Shown one piece after another: positions 2,666 through 54,572 of a stretch of DNA of 64,000 bases. The stretch is taken from assembly GCF_017348835.2 (NCBI RefSeq), contig NZ_CP071375.1; one strand, written 5' to 3'. Each line of letters starts with the position of its first letter. Position 1 is the first letter of the stretch. This DNA comes from Escherichia coli. GTDB taxonomy: Bacteria > Pseudomonadota > Gammaproteobacteria > Enterobacterales > Enterobacteriaceae. Position numbers and translations under genes: made by a program. The notes beneath the pieces were generated by a model. That model was not told where the DNA came from. It saw only the letters and a list, made by a program, of their open reading frames with translations, and ran no database searches.

Positions 2666-3922
2666 ATGCTCCATCCGCGAGCCAGAACCATGTTGTTATT
2701 ATCGCTCCCCGCCGTGGCAATTGGGATTGCGTCCAGTCTTATTCTGATTGTGGTGATGAAAATCGCCTCGGCATTACAGAATTTGCTCTGGCAACGACTG
2801 CCGGGAACTCTGGGGATAGCCCAGGATTCACCTCTCTGGATCATCGGTGTATTAACGTTAACGGGTATTGCAGTGGGGTTGGTTATCCGTTTCAGCCAGG
2901 GTCATGCCGGACCAGACCCCGCCTGTGAACCGCTGATCGGCGCACCGGTTCCGCCCTCTGCGCTACCAGGACTTATCGTAGCATTAATTCTCGGTCTTGC
3001 TGGCGGCGTCAGCCTGGGGCCGGAACATCCGATCATGACCGTCAATATCGCCCTTGCGGTTGCCATTGGCGCTCGTCTGTTACCGCGCGTCAACCGAATG
3101 GAGTGGACTATTTTAGCCTCTGCCGGAACCATCGGCGCGCTGTTTGGTACACCTGTTGCGGCGGCGTTGATATTTTCGCAAACCTTAAATGGCAGTAGTG
3201 AAGTTCCGCTATGGGATCGTCTTTTTGCGCCGTTAATGGCGGCAGCAGCTGGTGCACTTACTACCGGATTATTTTTCCATCCCCATTTTTCACTGCCCAT
3301 TGCGCATTACGGACAGATGGAAATGACCGATATTCTCAGCGGTGCAATTGTCGCGGCGATTGCCATCGCAGCAGGGATGGTCGCCGTATGGTGCTTACCA
3401 CGGTTGCACGCGATGATGCATCAAATGAAAAATCCGGTGCTCGTGCTGGGTATTGGCGGATTTATTCTCGGTATTCTGGGGGTTATTGGTGGACCAGTTT
3501 CGCTGTTTAAAGGACTGGATGAGATGCAGCAGATGGTGGCAAATCAGGCTTTCAGCACCAGCGATTACTTTTTACTGGCGGTGATTAAACTTACCGCCCT
3601 GGTCGTTGCTGCCGCCAGTGGCTTTCGCGGTGGACGAATTTTCCCGGCAGTGTTCGTCGGCGTGGCATTAGGGTTGATGCTGCATGAGCACGTCCCCGCC
3701 GTTCCAGCGGCAATAACCGTTTCCTGCGCTATTCTCGGCATCGTGCTGGTGGTAACACGCGATGGCTGGTTAAGTCTTTTTATGGCGGCAGTCGTTGTAC
3801 CCAATACCACATTGCTACCGCTGCTCTGTATCGTCATGCTTCCGGCATGGCTGTTATTAGCAGGTAAGCCGATGATGATGGTCAATCGTCCGAAGCAACA
3901 GCCACCCCACGATAACGTTTAA
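2666..3922 (+). CDS. yfeO: ClC-family putative ion-transport membrane protein
   Basis: 418-aa polytopic hydrophobic ORF; conserved position between glk and ypeC. Confidence 0.8.
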
Positions 3923-44939: not shown

Positions 44940-45127
44940 AAGTCGTTCCCTCAGGAAGAAGTGATGAGTGACATTTTTCACAGCCTTCAAACAATTCTAT
45001 TTCATCGTTAACCCTTGTCCTGTAAGGTAATTACCTTAGTACGCCCGCTATTCATCCTGCCGAACGCAACCGAACGCGCCGGATACATGAGCGGGGTTAT
45101 CGAGTCGTTAGATCGAGGTATCCGGTT

Positions 45128-46333
45128 TTGAGCAAGACACCACTGACAGCAAAGGCCATAGAGGCCGCACAACCGCAGGACAAGCCCTATAAACTCACCG
45201 ATTCACAGACACCTGGCCTGTTTTTGCTGGTCCATCCCAACGGCAGCAAATACTGGCGATTCCGGTATTGGATAGACAAGAAGGAGCGGTTACAGGCTAT
45301 TGGGGTGTATCCGCTGATTAGCCTCAAGGAAGCCCGCAAACGCGCCACAGAGAGCCGTTTACTGATAGCCCAGGGAATTGACCCAATGGATTTGGCACGC
45401 AAGGAGAAAGCCATTGATGCTCTTAATGCTATCGCCAGTTTTAAAGCTGTAGCAGAAGACTGGATGGCTACCAAGGTGAGCGGATGGAGTGAGAGCTATA
45501 CAAAGCAGGTCAGATCGGCACTAGAGAAAGATGTTTACCCCGTGCTAGGTAAGCGGTCGATAGTGGATATAACGGCCCGTGACGTGCTGGCGTTACTACA
45601 GAAAAAGGAGCGCACCGCACCGGAACAAGCCAGGAAATTACGCCAGCGTATCGGGGAGATCTTCAAATTTGCCGTTATCACTGAACTGGTTAACCGGAAT
45701 CCGGTTGCAGATCTGGATACGGCACTGAAAGCCAGACGCCCAGGCCATAACGCGTGGATACCGATTAATGAAATTCCGGCCTTCTACAAAGCCCTTGAGA
45801 GAGCTGGGAGCGTTCAGATTCAGACGGCAATACTTTTGCTCATCCTCACAGCTTTGAGGACGGCAGAATTGCGCCTGATGCGCTGGGAATGGGTAGATCT
45901 GCAATCGGCAACAATCACATTGCCCGCTGAAGTCATGAAGGCCCGCCGACCGCATGTTGTCCCGCTATCCCGGCAGGCGGTCGAGCTATTACAGGACCAG
46001 TTTACCCGCAGCGGATACAGTGCTTTCGTCTTTCCTGGCCGATTCATGGACAAGCCACTTTCAGCCAGTGCCATCCTTAAAGCCCTGGAGCGTATCGGAT
46101 ACAAGTCGATAGCCACAGGCCACGGCTGGCGGACCACCTTTTCAACGGCGCTTAATGAGTCCGGCAGGTACTCACCAGACTGGATCGAAATCCAACTGGC
46201 CCACGTTCCGAAAGGCGTGCGCGGTGTTTATAACCAGGCGGCCTACCTGAAGCAACGACGGGCCATGATGCAGGATTATAGCGACTGTATTGATTCAATA
46301 CTGGCTGGTGACGGTAATCCACTTGAACCGTGA
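45128..46333 (+). CDS. intZ: P4-type tyrosine integrase
   Basis: 401-aa ORF (TTG start in the ORF track); N-terminal arm-binding-type domain (DKPYKLTDSQTPGLFLLVHPNGSKYWRFRYW), catalytic region with HGWR and terminal ...GVYNQAAYLKQRRAMMQ tyrosine motif. The symbol is assigned by position only. Confidence 0.85.
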   Translation: MSKTPLTAKAIEAAQPQDKPYKLTDSQTPGLFLLVHPNGSKYWRFRYWIDKKERLQAIGVYPLISLKEARKRATESRLLIAQGIDPMDLARKEKAIDALNAIASFKAVAEDWMATKVSGWSESYTKQVRSALEKDVYPVLGKRSIVDITARDVLALLQKKERTAPEQARKLRQRIGEIFKFAVITELVNRNPVADLDTALKARRPGHNAWIPINEIPAFYKALERAGSVQIQTAILLLILTALRTAELRLMRWEWVDLQSATITLPAEVMKARRPHVVPLSRQAVELLQDQFTRSGYSAFVFPGRFMDKPLSASAILKALERIGYKSIATGHGWRTTFSTALNESGRYSPDWIEIQLAHVPKGVRGVYNQAAYLKQRRAMMQDYSDCIDSILAGDGNPLEP

Positions 46334-46884
46334 ACTATAAGGCCGGGTTTATACTCAATATCGACGGTTGAAGCGCTCAAAAAACAACCGTGACAACCGT
46401 CACAAATATGCAATGTCAATGATCTGAATCAATAAATTGCCAATTCTTCGTTTCCACTTTCGAATGAAAGCAAGATGCAGAAAAATAAATCACCATGAAA
46501 TCATGTACTTATTAATTTTGACCAAATGGTCCAAAATATCCTCGGTGAATCCATGCTTGCCACAGCCAGATGATTAATATTTAACCCATGACTTTCGAAT
46601 GAAAGTAAATTGATAAAAAAGTCAGTGTACACTAACTAAATCGAATATTTTTTGCGCTATGTTTGAATGATAATTGAGCAAAACTTTCGCAAGGTGTGAC
46701 GATGTGAGTAATTAATTTTAACTCTACAATAAACCCATCCCGACAGGGATGGTACCTGGAGCGGAGCGAGAGGGACCATCCCCCTGTTTTTAGTCTTTTG
46801 AAGTTAGTTTTTTAAGGGATTAAATAATTTTGCCTCAAATGAGACCACACCATACAAGGCCAAAAACAATCAGTATTGCGTGGA

Positions 46885-47400
46885 TCAGGCTGGTTTTTTA
46901 ACTATATACCCCGTATGCCAAGGATTCTGATCGCGCGGCATCGGGTCCGCCTTGATAGACTCATAAAACTTATCAGCCATCTCAGCCACAAACTGTACAG
47001 AGGATTCGAACTCAGCGTTTTTGTGTGCGGGAGGAAACCAGAAGTCTAACACGCCAGCATTTCTATTTTTACATACAGCGTATATAAGATAAGCATCAGA
47101 TGTAGGGGTAACTTTTTCGAAACCACCGGGACCATAACGACCAGTAGACCAGTCATCCCAGCATTGTTCTGTCCCGCTATAGCCGTACTGATTGGTATAA
47201 AGACCAATATTTACATGGACTTTACGTAAGTGGATAGGATATACACACGGGGGTTTATGGAAAAGAGTATCCTTTCCAAAATCAGGATGATGTCCATATC
47301 TCCAATGATAAATAAACGAATCCTTAAAGCTCTTTAATTCATCGTTTGTTTTAAACTTATTATCACTGTAGACCTTACCAATAAATTCATTCTGGACCAT
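46885..47400 (-). CDS. YafO-like toxin-family protein (putative toxin of a two-gene module)
   Basis: 171-aa ORF from ATG (complement 47398-47400); motifs DFGKDTLF, PIHLRKVHVNIG, SDAYLIYAVCK, FWFPPAHKNAE and VAEMADKF line up with YafO motifs as I recall them (FGRDALY, HIHL, EAHLVYCQG, KPEPHKLA, MAEAF). Confidence 0.5.
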   Translation of the reverse strand: MVQNEFIGKVYSDNKFKTNDELKSFKDSFIYHWRYGHHPDFGKDTLFHKPPCVYPIHLRKVHVNIGLYTNQYGYSGTEQCWDDWSTGRYGPGGFEKVTPTSDAYLIYAVCKNRNAGVLDFWFPPAHKNAEFESSVQFVAEMADKFYESIKADPMPRDQNPWHTGYIVKKPA

Positions 47401-47734
47401 CAAAGCTTACACTCTTTAAGCGTTCTTCTCGTGAATCGAATAAATCTTTTGATAAATCACACGCTTGTGTGAACGTCATTTTTTTTACTCGTGGTACAGC
47501 CATAGGCGAGGCCGCATTCATCACTTTGTTTTCTTCGTGATCGAGAGTAGCAGTGTAGCGAAACATGACACTTTTACCGCGCACCAACTGGTATCCTAGT
47601 CGATACGCTAACGCGTCAAGATGCGTCAGACGATTTGTTTTACGCAAGCCAGTCATAGCTTTTGGCTTACGAGTGCGCACAGAAAGGGATTTCCCTTCTC
47701 GCTTAGTCGCAAACAAAGTAACTATTTTTGACAT
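47387..47734 (-). CDS. small basic protein, putative partner/antitoxin of the downstream toxin-like gene
   Basis: 115-aa ORF from ATG (complement 47732-47734) with GGAGAT RBS; stop lies 10 bp before the downstream gene start; Lys/Arg-rich N-terminus. Confidence 0.45.
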   Translation of the reverse strand: MSKIVTLFATKREGKSLSVRTRKPKAMTGLRKTNRLTHLDALAYRLGYQLVRGKSVMFRYTATLDHEENKVMNAASPMAVPRVKKMTFTQACDLSKDLFDSREERLKSVSFDGPE

Positions 47735-48706
47735 GGTATCTCCTGACATCAATCTGCTAAGGCCATTGTGCCTTGTTTGAATAGTAAACTATTCGCCCAA
47801 TCTACACCAGTGATTTTCTTGACGCCAATAGTAAAGGCAGCATTGCCCACCACAGGCAGACAATGAGACTTCAGATAGCGCACCTTCTATCGCGCACGCG
47901 CTCAATAAAACCAACGACACCGCCATCCTGCCTGACCGATGTTTTTAACCAGCGTATACAGAGAAACAGACAACAGCATGAAATCAGCGTATATCCAGGT
48001 GCAGACGGCACTATCACACAACGCACAGCAGGCTGAGGTGAACACTCAAGCAACTTTATCCCCGCCACCGACCACCGCAAACTATCATGACCGTGCCAAA
48101 TTCAAAAGGAATGGCCCATATAACGCGATGAACACACATAAGCGCTACACTTGCTTACCTGAAAACTTCACAGCGTCACAGCGCGTTTTAGACACGTTAA
48201 AATTAATGAGATTTCATTAAATTTTCACCAGACACCGGAACAAGCCTATAAATCAAAAATGAATTACCGACATGCGCCGCTGGCGTTCACAGGAAGAATC
48301 AATAACTTAGGCCAATGGCGAAAGTTAAACAAAATCAAGAACTTGCAGAAATGCAGGATGAAGCAGCCGATGTGCCCCGTTGGATTTTACCAGAAGAATC
48401 AACAAGTTAGACTCGGTGATTTCACCGACTCCTGCCGGACTACTGACCAGATCGAACCATTCCCCAAATTTGGGGAGAGCAAACCACACGCAGATCCTGC
48501 CAGGCTATTTCATCCCACCGCATCACGTATTTGCACACTTCCCCGCTGACGTGCTCATTTTGATAACGAGTTACCCGCTAGCCCTTGCCACATCACCATT
48601 TGTCGCGCTTTGACTAAATTAGCGACGTGCCTGTTATAGCGATACGCTAGTTATGCAGAAAGCGCGACATATCCAGCAACCATGCACCCTACAGAGGAAT
48701 TGAATC

Positions 48707-49159
48707 ATGCGAGACATAGACTGGTCAGCTATCCCTTTCGATGATTTACCGCCCTGGCATCTGGACTGGGACGTAGACCAACGCGAAAACGCGACATATC
48801 CAGCAACCACCAGCATTACAGCGATGCGCCCCGTAAAGCCTAAGAAATACCAGGCAACCGACCTGATAGCTCACCTCAAAGCTATTGGCGGCGTATTTAC
48901 CGGAAGCAAAGACACGCTTGCACATGAAGTATGGCCCCGGAAGACGCCAGCGGGTCGAACCGTTTTACGCTTACTGACCGAACTGTCAGACAACGGCGAC
49001 GCTGTAGTGATTAACCGTGGTCGTTGTGGCGTGGAAGTTATTCTGACGCCGAAGAACAGGGCACAGACGCCTGAATTAAGCGCACCCAAGCAAATGCATA
49101 GCCAAAAATTAAGTCCAGCAGAACGCGTTATATCGCTTTTAAATGGCATCGGATTTTAA
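48707..49159 (+). CDS. hypothetical island protein
   Basis: 150-aa ORF with GAGGA RBS 8 nt upstream of ATG; no recognisable family. Confidence 0.5.
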   Translation: MRDIDWSAIPFDDLPPWHLDWDVDQRENATYPATTSITAMRPVKPKKYQATDLIAHLKAIGGVFTGSKDTLAHEVWPRKTPAGRTVLRLLTELSDNGDAVVINRGRCGVEVILTPKNRAQTPELSAPKQMHSQKLSPAERVISLLNGIGF

Positions 49160-49185
49160 TTAATTTTGATGTGGTAATTGCAGGC

Positions 49186-49212
49186 AAAAAAATCCCGCCG
49201 GAGAAAGCGGGG
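49186..49212 (-). terminator. rho-independent terminator oriented for minus-strand transcripts
   Basis: Minus strand reads CCCCGCtttctccgGCGGGattttttt (on plus strand the A-run precedes the hairpin). Confidence 0.55.
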
Positions 49213-49446
49213 AAGTGAAATCAATCGTTGTAGTTATAGATCACATTTTGGAGTTGAGGATGGCTAATCCTCGCTAATATTATCGCGCCGTTATGTGATG
49301 GGCGCAATTATTTCTTACTAATTAAAAGTTTTGTAAATATTACAGAATATCCCTTTTCACTATATGGTAAAAGATGTGAAACAGGGACATGAGGAATATA
49401 ATATTAAGTATCAACAGTAATGTTGGTCTTTAATTTCATTCAGGGC

Positions 49447-49489
49447 GCGGTGAGGGTTTTCTCCATATTTTTCCTCACCGCTACTTTTT
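49447..49489 (+). promoter_or_regulatory. terminator/attenuator-like hairpin in the alpA leader
   Basis: GCGGTGAGG-17 nt loop-CCTCACCGC followed by tacttttt, immediately upstream of the alpA RBS. Confidence 0.45.
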
Positions 49490-49501
49490 CGAGGTGAGAA
49501 C

Positions 49502-49693
49502 ATGAATGATAGCGAATTAATGACGGTGAACGAGGTAGCCGCTTTATTCGGCGTTACCCGTCGGACAATATTCCGGTGGATGAACAAGATTAAAGGCTGG
49601 CCCGTCCCGGTCAGTCCGATTGGCTCAAGAATTAAGTTTATCCGATCTGAGATTTTGGAATTCTATAAAAACAAAGGCGCTCGCCACCAATGA
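49502..49693 (+). CDS. alpA: AlpA-family phage/island transcriptional regulator (excision control)
   Basis: 63-aa ORF MTVNEVAALFGVTRRTIFRWMNKIKGWPVPVSPIGSRIKFIRSEILEF: typical AlpA HTH signature; RBS GAGGTGAG. Confidence 0.8.
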   Translation: MNDSELMTVNEVAALFGVTRRTIFRWMNKIKGWPVPVSPIGSRIKFIRSEILEFYKNKGARHQ

Positions 49694-49832
49694 AAACAGC
49701 TACTGAGATTATCAAATAACCTATTGATTTAAAAAGCTAGCTACCGCAATTTCTGAAGGAATAGGCAGCATGAAAATCAAAGCAAACACAATTAAAGAAA
49801 TAACATCAATCAAAGTAAAAGGAGCAGATGCC

Positions 49833-50096
49833 ATGCATTCATTAGATAGTTATTTTCAGCGCACGACAGCCCCTAAATCAGCCGCCCAGGAACGCCGTGA
49901 GGAATTCCAGGAAAAAGTGATGCGTTCTGCTGATTATATTGCGGACAAGTTCGCGGAAACGGTTCGGCCACTTGTTGATGAAGTAGCTGATAAACTTCAG
50001 TCTGAAATGCCGGAAGACATGGAAGGCACTGCAAAGGCGCGACTCCTTTTTGAATTAAGTCGTCGTTTCGGCGTGTCAATAAGCACTTTTAAATAA
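49833..50096 (+). CDS. hypothetical small acidic protein
   Basis: 87-aa ORF from ATG 49833 with AAAGGAG RBS 8 nt upstream. Confidence 0.5.
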   Translation: MHSLDSYFQRTTAPKSAAQERREEFQEKVMRSADYIADKFAETVRPLVDEVADKLQSEMPEDMEGTAKARLLFELSRRFGVSISTFK

Positions 50097-50113
50097 TCGG
50101 AGGAGGAAAGACA

Positions 50114-50656
50114 ATGGACGCATTTGATGTACTGACAAACAAAGGCGATGAACTGGTAGCACAGCGTGATAAAACCGCCAACGAAGGGGAACGCGCACTG
50201 TTAAATAAGCAGATTAAAGCGATCCGTATGGCCCAGTTTAAATTAATCAGCAATGAAGTTATCGAAAAAATTAAACCGCAGATCCCACAAATCGTTGCTG
50301 ACGCTATTAAAGCCGCCGGACTGGAGAAACGCATTGCCGGGCTGAAAACGAACGCAGAGAAAATGGAGATGCACAAACAGAGCGGTGCTCCGACTCCGGA
50401 TGAGTACTTCTCACCGGATGCTGAGTTTATGGCGCAGGTTGAGGAACGTCTGGGTAGCTGTCTCACCGAGGAACAGTGTCGCTATTTTGATGGAGTGGAT
50501 AGTTCGGCAGGTATTGACCTGAACTCGTATTTCGGTCGTGAAATTGAGCATTTTGATGCCGCCCCGTCTATGCCGGAGCCAGAACCAGAAATGGCCGCCG
50601 ATCCTGAAGCTGAGCAACGGAAACGCGTATTCAATGCGATAGGGATTCGGTACTGA
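50114..50656 (+). CDS. hypothetical protein (phage-associated)
   Basis: 180-aa ORF with strong GGAGGAGG RBS; acidic C-terminus. Confidence 0.55.
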   Translation: MDAFDVLTNKGDELVAQRDKTANEGERALLNKQIKAIRMAQFKLISNEVIEKIKPQIPQIVADAIKAAGLEKRIAGLKTNAEKMEMHKQSGAPTPDEYFSPDAEFMAQVEERLGSCLTEEQCRYFDGVDSSAGIDLNSYFGREIEHFDAAPSMPEPEPEMAADPEAEQRKRVFNAIGIRY

Positions 50657-50664
50657 TCGGATAA

Positions 50665-50688
50665 AAGAAAGCCGGGAATTACCCCGGC
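50665..50688 (-). terminator. hairpin terminator, T-tract on the minus strand
   Basis: GCCGGGaattacCCCGGC preceded on plus strand by ataaaagaaa (minus strand: hairpin then tttcttttat). Confidence 0.45.
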
Positions 50689-50707
50689 TGACTTAACAAT
50701 GTGACCA

Positions 50708-51082
50708 ATGAACAAATCGGACAAGACAAACAGGATAAGCAGTCTCGAAACAATGTTCGGGAACTATATTAGCACAAGTCCGGAGAAAATCATCATGTTG
50801 GCACTACGCATCATGCAGGGCATCGCTAAGACCCTCGCAGAACATGTCTTAGACCTGAAACATTCGCCACTGAGCAAACAGGCCATGAAGCGCCAAACGC
50901 TTCGTCTGTGGGCTGAATATTCGCTTGGAACTATCAATAAAATCATCGACATGAAATCGGGGCCGAGCAACCAGAGCGCGGAGGAAATGGAGTTCATCAG
51001 GCGTTTAATTCTCATTCGCAGAGACATTCATAGCCAGTTACACAGCGTGGGAATCGATATTAATGATGGGACGGGCGATTAA
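50708..51082 (+). CDS. hypothetical protein
   Basis: 124-aa ORF; weak RBS. Confidence 0.45.
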   Translation: MNKSDKTNRISSLETMFGNYISTSPEKIIMLALRIMQGIAKTLAEHVLDLKHSPLSKQAMKRQTLRLWAEYSLGTINKIIDMKSGPSNQSAEEMEFIRRLILIRRDIHSQLHSVGIDINDGTGD

Positions 51083-51120
51083 TTTTCGGACAAGTACTAT
51101 GCGCGCGCGAGGAGCTGAAC

Positions 51121-51351
51121 ATGAAGCAAGATATTGCAGACAGGCTGGAGATACTCGAAGGCCAGCGGGCAGAAGCGAAACAACTACGTAAGCAGGCCAG
51201 AAGAGCGCACAGGAACTACGAAGCAGAATCACTGACCGCTTTCATCAACTTCACAAACCGTTGCATCCTGGAGTGTTACAGGGAGGATGCAGAAAACTGG
51301 CTGGATTCATTGCCAGAACAGACTCTGCATGAACTGAACGGCGACCAGTAA
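51121..51351 (+). CDS. hypothetical small protein
   Basis: 76-aa ORF with GAGGAG RBS 6 nt upstream. Confidence 0.5.
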   Translation: MKQDIADRLEILEGQRAEAKQLRKQARRAHRNYEAESLTAFINFTNRCILECYREDAENWLDSLPEQTLHELNGDQ

Positions 51352-51638
51352 ATAAATCCAGTACGTTTCCCGCAGTGCGCATAACGTACATTATGTGAAA
51401 AACGATATGGATATATATCAGTCTGACTTCAATGAAGAAAACGGACTTCCAGCATCAACCACAAAGAAGTATGGCTAATGCAGCTTTATAAGCCATTGAT
51501 TCTATTAAACGATATTTTTTGTGATTGGTTGAAGCAAACCAAAACACGATGCCACTGAAGCGTTAATAAACTGTTTCAATGTGAAATTATCAGAGTAAAG
51601 AACAATTTGGAGGGTCCGCAAACGCGGATAACAATATC

Positions 51639-53819
51639 ATGAGTGGAAATCTCGGGACCATATACTACGAGGTCGATGCCCGCACTGGGAAACTTCTTAT
51701 CGCGCAACAGCAGGCGGAAGAGGCGTTCGATCGCATTGAACGAGGAGCGCGGAAGGCTGATAGCGGCGTCAAAAAGTTAAATACGCAGATGACTAAAACA
51801 TCAGCCGCAGTCAAAACCAACCTTTCCCCGGCAATCCGTAACGCATCATACCAGATCGCAGACCTTGCCACTCAATTGCAGATGGGCGGTAATGCGCTTC
51901 AGGCGTTCGCTGTGCAGGGTGCGCAGTTATTAGCTGGCTTTGGCACGATGGGCGCGGTAGCTGGCGCGGTGCTGGCTATCGCTGGCGCTATGGGTGGAAG
52001 CCTGGCACAAGGCGCTGATAGTGCAGCCGGATCGGTTGAGTATCTGGACAAGGCGATCACCAAACTGAACGAGGTCATAGCTGTAAATGAACAGGGCGTG
52101 ACGGTGATGAGTGATAGTTACGCCAGACTTTCTAAGGTTAACGCTGAAGTAGCGAAACAGATGCGGAACATGGCTGAAATTCAGGCAATTGCAGCACTGC
52201 GTGACCTGAAAGAACAGGCAAGCCAGGCACAGGGGGAAATGTCGTCATTCTGGCGCAGCTTGCAGGGTGGTAAAGCTGACGCAGCAGCAGCAGCACAGGC
52301 ACTTGATGATCTTGGAATCACAACCAACGACTACAAAGAGGCGATAGCCATACTGAACGCCAATCAGCCGGATACACAGGCGCAAATGGCAACGCTAGCT
52401 AAGTCCGTGATGTACATAGGCGAGGAATACAACCTGACAAACCAGCAAGCCTACGAGTTCATCCGAGCACTAAATAGGGCCGCGACAACGAGAACGCCGG
52501 AAGCCATGCAGGAACTATCGGGCTTCATGCAGGTATTGCTACAGGACACCGAAAACGGTAACGAGGCATTCCGTGAACTGGCTATCAAATTCGTTGATGC
52601 ACAAACCAAAGGCGCAATGCTGGAAGACCAACTAAACCGACTGAAAGGCGCTATCAGTGACGCAGCCACAGAAGCCAGAAACGCCAATTTTACCACTATG
52701 CTCAACACCGTCGCCGCACGCCTGGCAGCCATTGAGCAAGGTTGGGAGGCAGGCGTTAGGATGCAGATGAAAGCCCAGGGCTACACTGAAGAGCAGATCG
52801 ATGAATATGTGAACATGGAAACGGCGTACCGTGATGCAAAAGCCGCTTTGGACGAGAAGAATAAGGCCGACCGTGAAGCTATTGCGCTATCCAAACGCCA
52901 GGCCGCAGAAGCAGCCCGCAAGGCAAAACAGGAAGAAGCTGAAGCACAACGCAAGGCCAAACAGTTAGCCGCGCAGAAGGAGCAGGCAGGACGCTTTACG
53001 CAGCAAGTAATGACGGAATACCTGACGACCGTAGATCCGGCAACAGGCAAGGCGTTTAACCCTGCCGCACAAGTAGAAATGCAGGAGCAGCAGAAGAAAG
53101 CGGCGCTGGATAAATACAGACAGTTGGGCGTCCTGGATGAACAGCAGTACCAGAACACGCTAACCGCCATCCAGAAAACCGCGTCAATGCGCCGCCAGCA
53201 AATCATCAAAGACGAGGCCGACACGTTATTCAACAATCAGCAACAGTTGATCGGCACATTTGGCGATTTCTTCGGTGAACTGTCTGGAGTCATAGCAGAC
53301 GGTGCAGGTGAGCAAAACGCGGCATATCAAGCGCTATTTGCTGTGCAGAAGGGTTTTGTATTGGCATCAGCAGCTTTAAGCCTTCAGAAAGCGCTTGCTG
53401 AGGCAAACGCCTTGCCTTTCCCGGCTAATCTTCCGGCCTATGCGCAAGCTATGTCAGCAGGCACGCAGATCATTTCAGCTATTCGTGGAATAGCTTTCGG
53501 TGGCGGACGCTACAACGGCGGCGCGGTTGGTGCTGGCAACCTGTACCGCGTGGGTGAACACGGTAAGCCTGAGATATTCAAGGCGAACAATGGCAGCCAG
53601 TACATGATCCCAGGTGATAACGGTCGCGTGATAAGTAATCGTGACATTGGCGGCGGTGGCGGCGTAACAATCAACAGCCCGATCACCATTAACACTACGA
53701 ATGGCTTCAGTGATGAAGACTCAAGGCGTCTTGAGGAAGCGATGAAGCGCGTAGCTATGGGCGTTTGCAGGCAGGAGTCAACCAGACCGGGAGGAATGTT
53801 AGCCCCGCGCCGTCGTTAA
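51639..53819 (+). CDS. phage tail tape-measure-like protein
   Basis: 726-aa ORF: glycine/alanine-rich hydrophobic segment (LLAGFGTMGAVAGAVLAIAGAMGGSLAQGADSAAG), long A/Q/E/K-rich coiled-coil middle, C-terminal G-rich region with YRVGEHGKPE motif. Confidence 0.7.
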   Translation: MSGNLGTIYYEVDARTGKLLIAQQQAEEAFDRIERGARKADSGVKKLNTQMTKTSAAVKTNLSPAIRNASYQIADLATQLQMGGNALQAFAVQGAQLLAGFGTMGAVAGAVLAIAGAMGGSLAQGADSAAGSVEYLDKAITKLNEVIAVNEQGVTVMSDSYARLSKVNAEVAKQMRNMAEIQAIAALRDLKEQASQAQGEMSSFWRSLQGGKADAAAAAQALDDLGITTNDYKEAIAILNANQPDTQAQMATLAKSVMYIGEEYNLTNQQAYEFIRALNRAATTRTPEAMQELSGFMQVLLQDTENGNEAFRELAIKFVDAQTKGAMLEDQLNRLKGAISDAATEARNANFTTMLNTVAARLAAIEQGWEAGVRMQMKAQGYTEEQIDEYVNMETAYRDAKAALDEKNKADREAIALSKRQAAEAARKAKQEEAEAQRKAKQLAAQKEQAGRFTQQVMTEYLTTVDPATGKAFNPAAQVEMQEQQKKAALDKYRQLGVLDEQQYQNTLTAIQKTASMRRQQIIKDEADTLFNNQQQLIGTFGDFFGELSGVIADGAGEQNAAYQALFAVQKGFVLASAALSLQKALAEANALPFPANLPAYAQAMSAGTQIISAIRGIAFGGGRYNGGAVGAGNLYRVGEHGKPEIFKANNGSQYMIPGDNGRVISNRDIGGGGGVTINSPITINTTNGFSDEDSRRLEEAMKRVAMGVCRQESTRPGGMLAPRRR

Positions 53820-54317
53820 CCAAATCCCACGCCAGGGGGATAGACTGGCGGCCTTTCAATTCCGTTGAAACGACGGAATCAAACACCCCGATTCAGGGTA
53901 TTTAAACGTCGCGTTTCACGACATTTATCTAAGTCATTGATTTATATTGTAACTCATAATTGAGTTGCGCCGACCATCCCGCCACAAACGCTCCTACGCA
54001 AAAATTCCCTCACAATTACCCTGCCAATTTTCCAGATTTCACGTATACGCGCCTATATCCCCGCCACCGGATACACGCCCGCTTATACCGGATACTTTTA
54101 TGCCATCATTATTAAATCCATTAATAATCATCAAACCATAATTAGCACAACTTATAATCGAACAAAAAACACACAACATTGATAATGATTTTTTCTGGTT
54201 ATACTTATCTAAAAAAGTGGTATGGGAAGTAACTTATTGTTTTGTAATTACAAATTTATTGCGTGGTCAGATGAACAGACTTGCGCACCTCCCGAAAAAC
54301 ACGCGAAAATCGAAGTG

Positions 54318-54427
54318 TTCTTTCTTTTTTTGTTTTTTATTTTTTTATTTTCTCTTTTTCTTCTCTTTCCGGTTCTCTTCTTTTTCTGGTTTTGGTTTTT
54401 TCCTTTTTTATTTTTATTCTTTCTTCA
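54318..54427. repeat. polypyrimidine (T/C) low-complexity tract
   Basis: ~110 bp almost exclusively T and C on the plus strand (tctttctttttttgttttttatttttttattttctc...). Confidence 0.9.
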
Positions 54428-54572
54428 GGGTTGTGATCAAACACACCAAAACATTTTCGCCACAAAAGCGTTAATTTCATCCTGCCAGACCATTCACTTT
54501 CACCGGATACACAGCCGGATATAATCCCGCTAACACCCAGCCACCCAGCATCACGCCTGATAACTACCGTAT

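Follow-up and report, generated by a model that had tools for sequence, protein, structure and literature searches.

The gene pair described here lies on contig NZ_CP071375.1 of Escherichia coli (assembly GCF_017348835.2), in a 64-kb stretch of DNA that was analysed as a whole and is called the window; all positions are counted within it. Both genes are on the minus strand (Table 1). The first, ORF A, encodes a candidate antitoxin, and the second, ORF B, a protein that RefSeq already names "type II toxin-antitoxin system YafO family toxin". A preliminary description of this DNA had reported a minus-strand gene pair, and this is confirmed: both ORFs are real and have homologues in other genera. 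The ORF B protein is 44–80% identical to its homologues there (42–80% if two YDDAE loci, L056 and L057, are included). Close homologues of the partner are few, being found in Klebsiella and Citrobacter at 52–59% identity. Since the same gene order and overlap recur in homologues across genera, the observation exceeds chance.

Two details of the preliminary description have to be corrected. The genes were said to be 10 bp apart, but they overlap by 14 nt. They were also said to lie directly beside the integrase, but 551 bp of DNA (37% GC) separate the toxin stop from the stop of intZ, and the two transcription units converge. This spacer (46334–46884) is without any ORF of more than 60 aa, has a strong hairpin at 46746–46782, and up to position 46816 consists of backbone DNA that is also present in strains with other cassettes. 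The portrayal of ORF A as a 115-aa basic protein with a GGAG ribosome-binding site, on the other hand, holds good, its pI being 10.2 with 23 lysine and arginine residues. The longer form GGAGAT is kept upstream of the partner genes in 13 aligned loci, one of which has the variant GGGGGT.

Table 1. Coordinates of the gene pair and associated features in the window
Feature	Position	Strand	Details
Candidate antitoxin gene (ORF A)	47387..47734	-	ATG at 47734, TGA at 47387-47389; 115 aa; RefSeq WP_000036755.1, "hypothetical protein"
Candidate toxin gene (ORF B), YafO family, predicted RelE fold	46885..47400	-	ATG at 47400, TGA at 46885-46887; 171 aa; RefSeq WP_000250467.1
Overlap of antitoxin stop and toxin start (14 nt), ATGGTCCAGAATGA	47387..47400	-	Putative translational-coupling junction, read from the sequence
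GGAG ribosome-binding site of ORF A	47740..47743	-	5-nt spacer to the antitoxin ATG
intZ tyrosine integrase gene (context)	45128..46333	+	Belongs to the island between eutB and eutA
Exchangeable cargo cassette	46817..47770		954 bp, 41.8% GC; 3' UTR, toxin, antitoxin and 36-nt leader; blastn breakpoints
Putative promoter and palindrome	47779..47828	-	-35 TTGGCG at 47823-47828, 18-nt spacer, -10 TAGATT at 47799-47804; inferred, weak
GC-rich hairpin(s), likely operon terminator	46735..46782	-	100-150 nt beyond the toxin stop; island backbone

Family and predicted fold of the toxin

What kind of protein does ORF B encode? As a single sequence it matches the Pfam model YafO_toxin (PF13957) at a borderline level (E = 0.0093, 16.5 bits, model positions 13–100 of 101), and among 13 close homologues the same model is matched by 2 at E ≤ 1e-3 and by 8 at E ≤ 0.1. 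NCBIfam and PADLOC gave no match for ORF B, a PDB sequence search returned nothing relevant, and a match to phrog_1651 (E = 1e-42) leads to a family of no known function. Profile comparisons are more sensitive. With hhalign, a profile of the 13 homologues aligns with the single K-12 YafO sequence at E = 1.7e-5. Against an alignment of K-12 YafO and eight other YafO proteins, every member of which matches PF13957 significantly, the probability rises to 99.4% (E = 1.4e-21, 145 columns). In a Foldseek search of AFDB50, about 40 of the best 50 matches are named YafO, the others being unnamed except for one named RelE. The weak Pfam result, which by itself would count against the assignment, is therefore overturned by the profile and structure comparisons. 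The YafO-like toxin of the preliminary description is supported by them, although its single-sequence Pfam check turned out weak. The motif pairs on which that idea had been based are reproduced when the profile is aligned with K-12 YafO: FGKD/FGRD, VHV/IHL, SDAYLIY/DEAHLVY, PPAHK/PEPHK and MADKF/MAEAF.

The toxin family is small, with 73 proteins at E < 1e-3 in a profile search of 1.84 billion representatives, and it runs continuously from forms of 160–200 aa to the canonical YafO of 133–150 aa. An alignment of 62 sequences, K-12 YafO among them, shows no variation at F29, G42, H62 and H126 and conservation of 90% or more at D44, S101 and Y107. H62 and H126, with D44 and R59 close by, are likely candidates for the catalytic residues.

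The AlphaFold2 model of ORF B (pLDDT 96.7, pTM 0.91) has the fold of the RelE/HigB toxins. At 171 aa the protein is 39 aa longer than K-12 YafO (132 aa), in agreement with the earlier estimate of about 40 aa and an inserted segment rich in Gly, Tyr and Trp. The additional length is made up of an internal insertion (approximately residues 65–97) and a C-terminal tail (approximately residues 150–171). The insertion is ordered and contains the conserved residues C80, W81 and W84; the hhalign alignment to K-12 YafO places a 17-aa insertion in ORF B. The predicted pI is neutral, at 7.1. A solved structure for any member of the YafO family was not found by sequence profile search. The RelE/ParE (BECR-fold) proteins used for comparison, namely HigB2 of Vibrio cholerae (PDB 5mje), HigB1 of M. 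tuberculosis (7nbu), YafQ (4q2u), RelE and YoeB, are only 5–16% identical to ORF B. Their active-site residues are not transferable to it by sequence, and about 70 ORF B residues are without a counterpart in these structures. Judged by its sequence relationships and its predicted structure, ORF B belongs to the YafO family as a divergent and enlarged form with a RelE fold.

The partner protein and conservation of the pair

The pair was compared in 57 Enterobacterales loci (36 distinct pairs), located on IMG/VR prophage contigs and on chromosomal contigs of Klebsiella, Serratia, Yersinia and E. coli. In every one of them the toxin homologue is preceded by an ORF of 108–175 aa, its end overlapping the start of the toxin gene by 11 or 14 nt, and the antitoxin-then-toxin order that had made the locus look like a toxin-antitoxin module is thus conserved throughout. 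A search with the 13-sequence alignment found the pair on 44 IMG/VR prophage contigs; the pair or its relatives are also present in the phages EC.W1-9 and TL-2011b and in AlpA/integrase islands. In prophages the pair occupies what is typically accessory DNA: an Ant/Bro-N anti-repressor gene immediately precedes it, and virion, tailspike or lysis genes adjoin it.

The proteins encoded upstream of the toxin have only their last 35 or so residues in common. Their N-termini are variable and have been swapped, with at least four unrelated types. ORF A itself consists of a basic N-terminal region modelled with low confidence (residues 1–77), followed by the conserved C-terminal two-helix motif (approximately residues 80–115, PRVKKMTFTQACDLSKDLFDSREERLKSVSFDGPE). 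The consensus of the shared motif is P-x-V-K-K-M-S-x-x-E-A-x-x-L-S-R-x-(L/M)-x-x-S-x-E-E-R-...-F-D-x-x-E, and it is kept in the 36 distinct gene pairs as well as in phage TL-2011b, where the partner, at 59 aa, is hardly more than the motif and the YafO-type toxin is 32% identical to ORF B. Down to a toxin identity of 32%, then, neither the gene order nor the overlap is lost, and the partner motif continues to follow the toxin; strict conservation of this kind is characteristic of proteins that interact physically. When ORF A and the toxin were modelled with AlphaFold as a linker fusion with a paired alignment, the partner was predicted confidently only at residues 80–112 or so, as two helices with a pLDDT of about 90, and its N-terminus fell below 50. 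Judged by pLDDT alone, the C-terminal segment may dock on the toxin. Such an architecture, in which a conserved and presumably toxin-binding segment is linked to an exchangeable part that is basic or disordered and may bind DNA, is typical of type II antitoxins.

What, then, is the partner related to? No match to ORF A was found in Pfam, PHROGs, NCBIfam, PADLOC or the PDB. A relationship to YafN was considered since the two proteins have an acidic, F-x-D-x-x-E-like tail in common, but it was dropped: BLASTP yields no alignment between ORF A and YafN, and an hhalign comparison of the partner C-terminal profile with YafN gives a probability of 0.2%. The preliminary description was right, then, that the partner does not resemble antitoxins of the YafN/Phd type, no similarity being detected by BLASTP, hhalign or Pfam. 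An Rfam search of positions 46200–49000 matched no RNA family, which makes a known RNA antitoxin less likely. The partner most likely represents a new, modular antitoxin family that lacks database annotation and includes PHROGs 9503 and 5933, both of function not known.

The closest characterised relative for comparison is the YafN-YafO pair of E. coli K-12. The toxins are homologous and share the motifs FG[KR]D, HxH, (T)SD..(L/I)(I/V)Y and AHK and a C-terminal helix; they have the same predicted fold class, and in both systems the antitoxin gene precedes the toxin gene. (Most HigBA systems differ in gene order from the antitoxin-then-toxin arrangement seen here.) The present toxin differs in its 39 additional residues, placed in the internal insertion and the C-terminal tail, and in falling below Pfam significance on its own. 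The antitoxins are unrelated, YafN being of the Phd/YefM type. The genomic settings differ as well, since the K-12 pair belongs to the SOS-regulated dinB-yafN-yafO-yafP operon, whereas the present pair, with its 14-nt overlap, is carried by prophages and islands.

Some loci have additional genes nearby. Directly after the toxin gene, chromosomal islands of Klebsiella oxytoca (L004, 6869–7369) and Serratia (L013, 5552–6049) have a homologous third gene. Its product (165–166 aa, phrog_36918, of function not known) is hydrophobic at the N-terminus, where it probably spans the membrane, and the copies in the two islands share 32% identity. This may mark a three-gene variant of the module. The third gene was rejected as a part of the core module, for a tblastn search of the window and of the viral loci detected no trace of it. 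In the Serratia fonticola island (L013), about 2 kb separate the YafO-like pair from an upstream gene with a SocA_Panacea domain (2772–3227), which has AlpA-like genes next to it. SocA_Panacea is a promiscuous antitoxin domain, and the island appears to gather cargo of the toxin-antitoxin type.

The cassette and its island

The breakpoints of the cassette were defined by blastn against two strains: Ceylon31, where another YafO-type pair takes its place, and ATCC 8739, in which the slot is empty. The GC content of the cassette is 42%, compared to 53–59% in the flanking genes. Between the same breakpoints, Ceylon31 (L002, 6340–6950) has a 159-aa gene annotated as YafO family and 18% identical to ORF B, preceded with a 16-nt overlap by an unannotated, very basic ORF of 48 aa; annotation has probably overlooked an antitoxin gene here. 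ATCC 8739 has an empty slot, as do at least 20 among 60 listed genomes, out of approximately 200 with a related intergenic region. That the pair occupies a cargo slot, as had been suggested, is thus borne out by other E. coli strains, in which the slot is empty or otherwise filled. Of 5,426 complete E. coli genomes, 35 match a 1.2-kb stretch with the pair and 17 of these contain the pair in full; identical, intact ORF A and ORF B proteins are found on different island backbones, including that of O157:H7.

The host island, of about 9.5 kb (approximately 45000–54550), interrupts the eut operon between eutB and eutA; in E. coli K-12 this site is occupied by the CPZ-55 element. Besides intZ, the island encodes a 63-aa AlpA/excisionase-like HTH protein (49502–49693) and several orphan ORFs, and it looks like a small satellite-like element. 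A 726-aa island protein (51639–53819, plus strand), hypothetical in RefSeq, matches PHROG families of tail length tape measure proteins (phrog_1538, E = 3e-103; phrog_1107, E = 7e-58). Such a match is odd for a small integrase/AlpA island, and this one has no other recognised tail or capsid genes. A literature search on the WP accessions and on CPZ-55/intZ turned up nothing specific.

Upstream of ORF A, the putative promoter scores 8 out of 12, which is under the threshold of the promoter scan. At the expected transcription start there is a perfect palindrome, GAATAGT-TT-ACTATTC (47779–47794), which was considered as a cassette-specific operator. This idea was withdrawn: promoter and palindrome are part of the island backbone, with 92% identity to Ceylon31 (L002), which carries a different cassette, so that the palindrome is no evidence for autoregulation by ORF A. 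Other inverted repeats occur in homologous loci: TTACC-N5-GGTAA and TCAAC-N5-GTTGA are located at -35 to -57 nt from the partner ATG in L004, L016–L021, L026, L027 and L040. In these Klebsiella and phage loci the arms are conserved and the spacers variable, and the repeats lie between a TAAGAT or TAATAT -10-like element and the GGAGAT motif. Their placement makes them candidate operators of the operon.

Proposed function and its alternatives

How might the pair work? In our judgement it is probably a type II toxin-antitoxin operon, in which an antitoxin with a C-terminal clamp holds a YafO-like RNase in check and which is carried as a mobile cargo cassette. ORF A would be translated first, and translation of ORF B would be coupled to it through the 14-nt overlap. 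The C-terminal two-helix segment of ORF A (approximately residues 80–115) would be laid on the toxin and neutralise it, and the basic, probably disordered N-terminus could provide lability, DNA binding or both. Once free, ORF B, as a YafO-like endoribonuclease of the RelE fold, would cleave mRNA and thereby stop translation. The model here is YafO itself, an mRNA endonuclease (as summarised in PMC11980606), the ribosome dependence of which has been questioned and which is atypical among RelE-like toxins (bioRxiv 10.1101/2021.07.08.451724). The pair would move as self-contained cargo, in this case in the variable slot of the integrase/AlpA island in the eut operon. What the analysis shows is the homology, the predicted fold, the gene layout, the modular make-up of the partner and the polymorphism of the cassette; that ORF B is toxic and cuts RNA, that ORF A neutralises it, what triggers its release and what the pair does for its carrier are inferences. 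Carriers might benefit if cells in which an incoming phage has shut down gene expression were arrested or killed, or the element might be stabilised.

The first of these benefits leads to the possibility, which we hold only tentatively, that the pair is a dedicated anti-phage system for abortive infection or superinfection exclusion, with the partner N-terminus as sensor or labile element and the RNase as effector. This reading refines the toxin-antitoxin explanation and does not exclude it. It would fit the almost exclusive occurrence of the pair on mobile elements (the 44 IMG/VR contigs, EC.W1-9, TL-2011b and the AlpA/integrase islands), its position in accessory regions beside anti-repressor genes, and the polymorphic slot with its alternative YafO-type modules. 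It would also fit the exchange of partner N-termini while the toxin-linked motif is retained, but such exchange is equally expected of the DNA-binding or regulatory domains of ordinary antitoxins, and the integrase neighbourhood suits element stabilisation just as well. PADLOC-DB v2 gave no match for the toxin, the partner, the island neighbours or the alternative cassettes. There are no other recognisable defence genes in the island, and a literature search found no link between YafO-type toxins and defence, satellites or PICIs.

The second benefit corresponds to an addiction or stabilisation module without any role in phage defence, in which the labile antitoxin would decay after loss of the element and the cell would die. 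We regard this as doubtful. The integrase-proximal place in an excisable island with an AlpA/excisionase-like gene, the classic type II layout and the intact, identical proteins in different strains are all in its favour. However, many closely related islands persist with the slot empty, as in ATCC 8739 and the other genomes mentioned above, and the module is therefore not required for maintenance of the island.

A more far-reaching proposal, and an unlikely one in our estimate, is that the pair and its prophage relatives make up an undescribed abortive-infection system of phages and satellites, in which a YafO-type RNase would be restrained by the short C-terminal clamp of the partner and interchangeable partner N-termini would act as sensors or decoys and so set which phage frees the toxin. 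Very unlikely is the notion that this is no toxin-antitoxin pair at all, ORF B being a non-toxic or domesticated protein of the RelE fold that binds RNA or acts in regulation, or a phage RNase for host takeover, and ORF A an independent nucleic-acid-binding regulator: the neutral pI and the structural elements missing from YafO, the absence of a recognisable antitoxin domain in the partner and the atypical standing of YafO among RelE-like toxins (bioRxiv 10.1101/2021.07.08.451724) might be quoted for it, but the family-wide invariant histidines are kept, and gene order, overlap and partner motif are strictly co-conserved down to 32% toxin identity.

Taken as a toxin-antitoxin operon, the pair is not a new kind of system, since the toxin family is known and already so named in RefSeq. 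New, most likely, are the modular antitoxin family, the enlarged architecture of the toxin and the carriage of the pair as an exchangeable cassette in prophages and in the island at the eut site. Work published in 2022 by Rousset et al. and by Fillol-Salom et al. reportedly describes defence and toxin-antitoxin cargo in hotspots of phage satellites and prophages. The cassette resembles the cargo of P4/P2 hotspots and PICIs in its small size, its low GC content and its exchangeability within a fixed slot of an integrase/AlpA island, a slot that other strains fill with alternative modules. It differs in being missing from PADLOC and having no known defence phenotype, and its island is at most a candidate satellite.

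YafO is among the least understood toxins of the RelE superfamily, and its ribosome dependence is disputed (PMC11980606; bioRxiv 10.1101/2021.07.08.451724). The locus described here defines an enlarged YafO subfamily of mobile elements, with a very confident structural model and two candidate catalytic histidines. If the pair is merely another toxin-antitoxin module, the gain will be better annotation only. If, on the other hand, it is a working toxin-antitoxin or defence module, orphan families of phages would gain an annotation, the small integrase/AlpA islands would gain one more entry in their list of cargo, and the N-terminally swapped antitoxins would provide a natural set in which to study how toxins are released.
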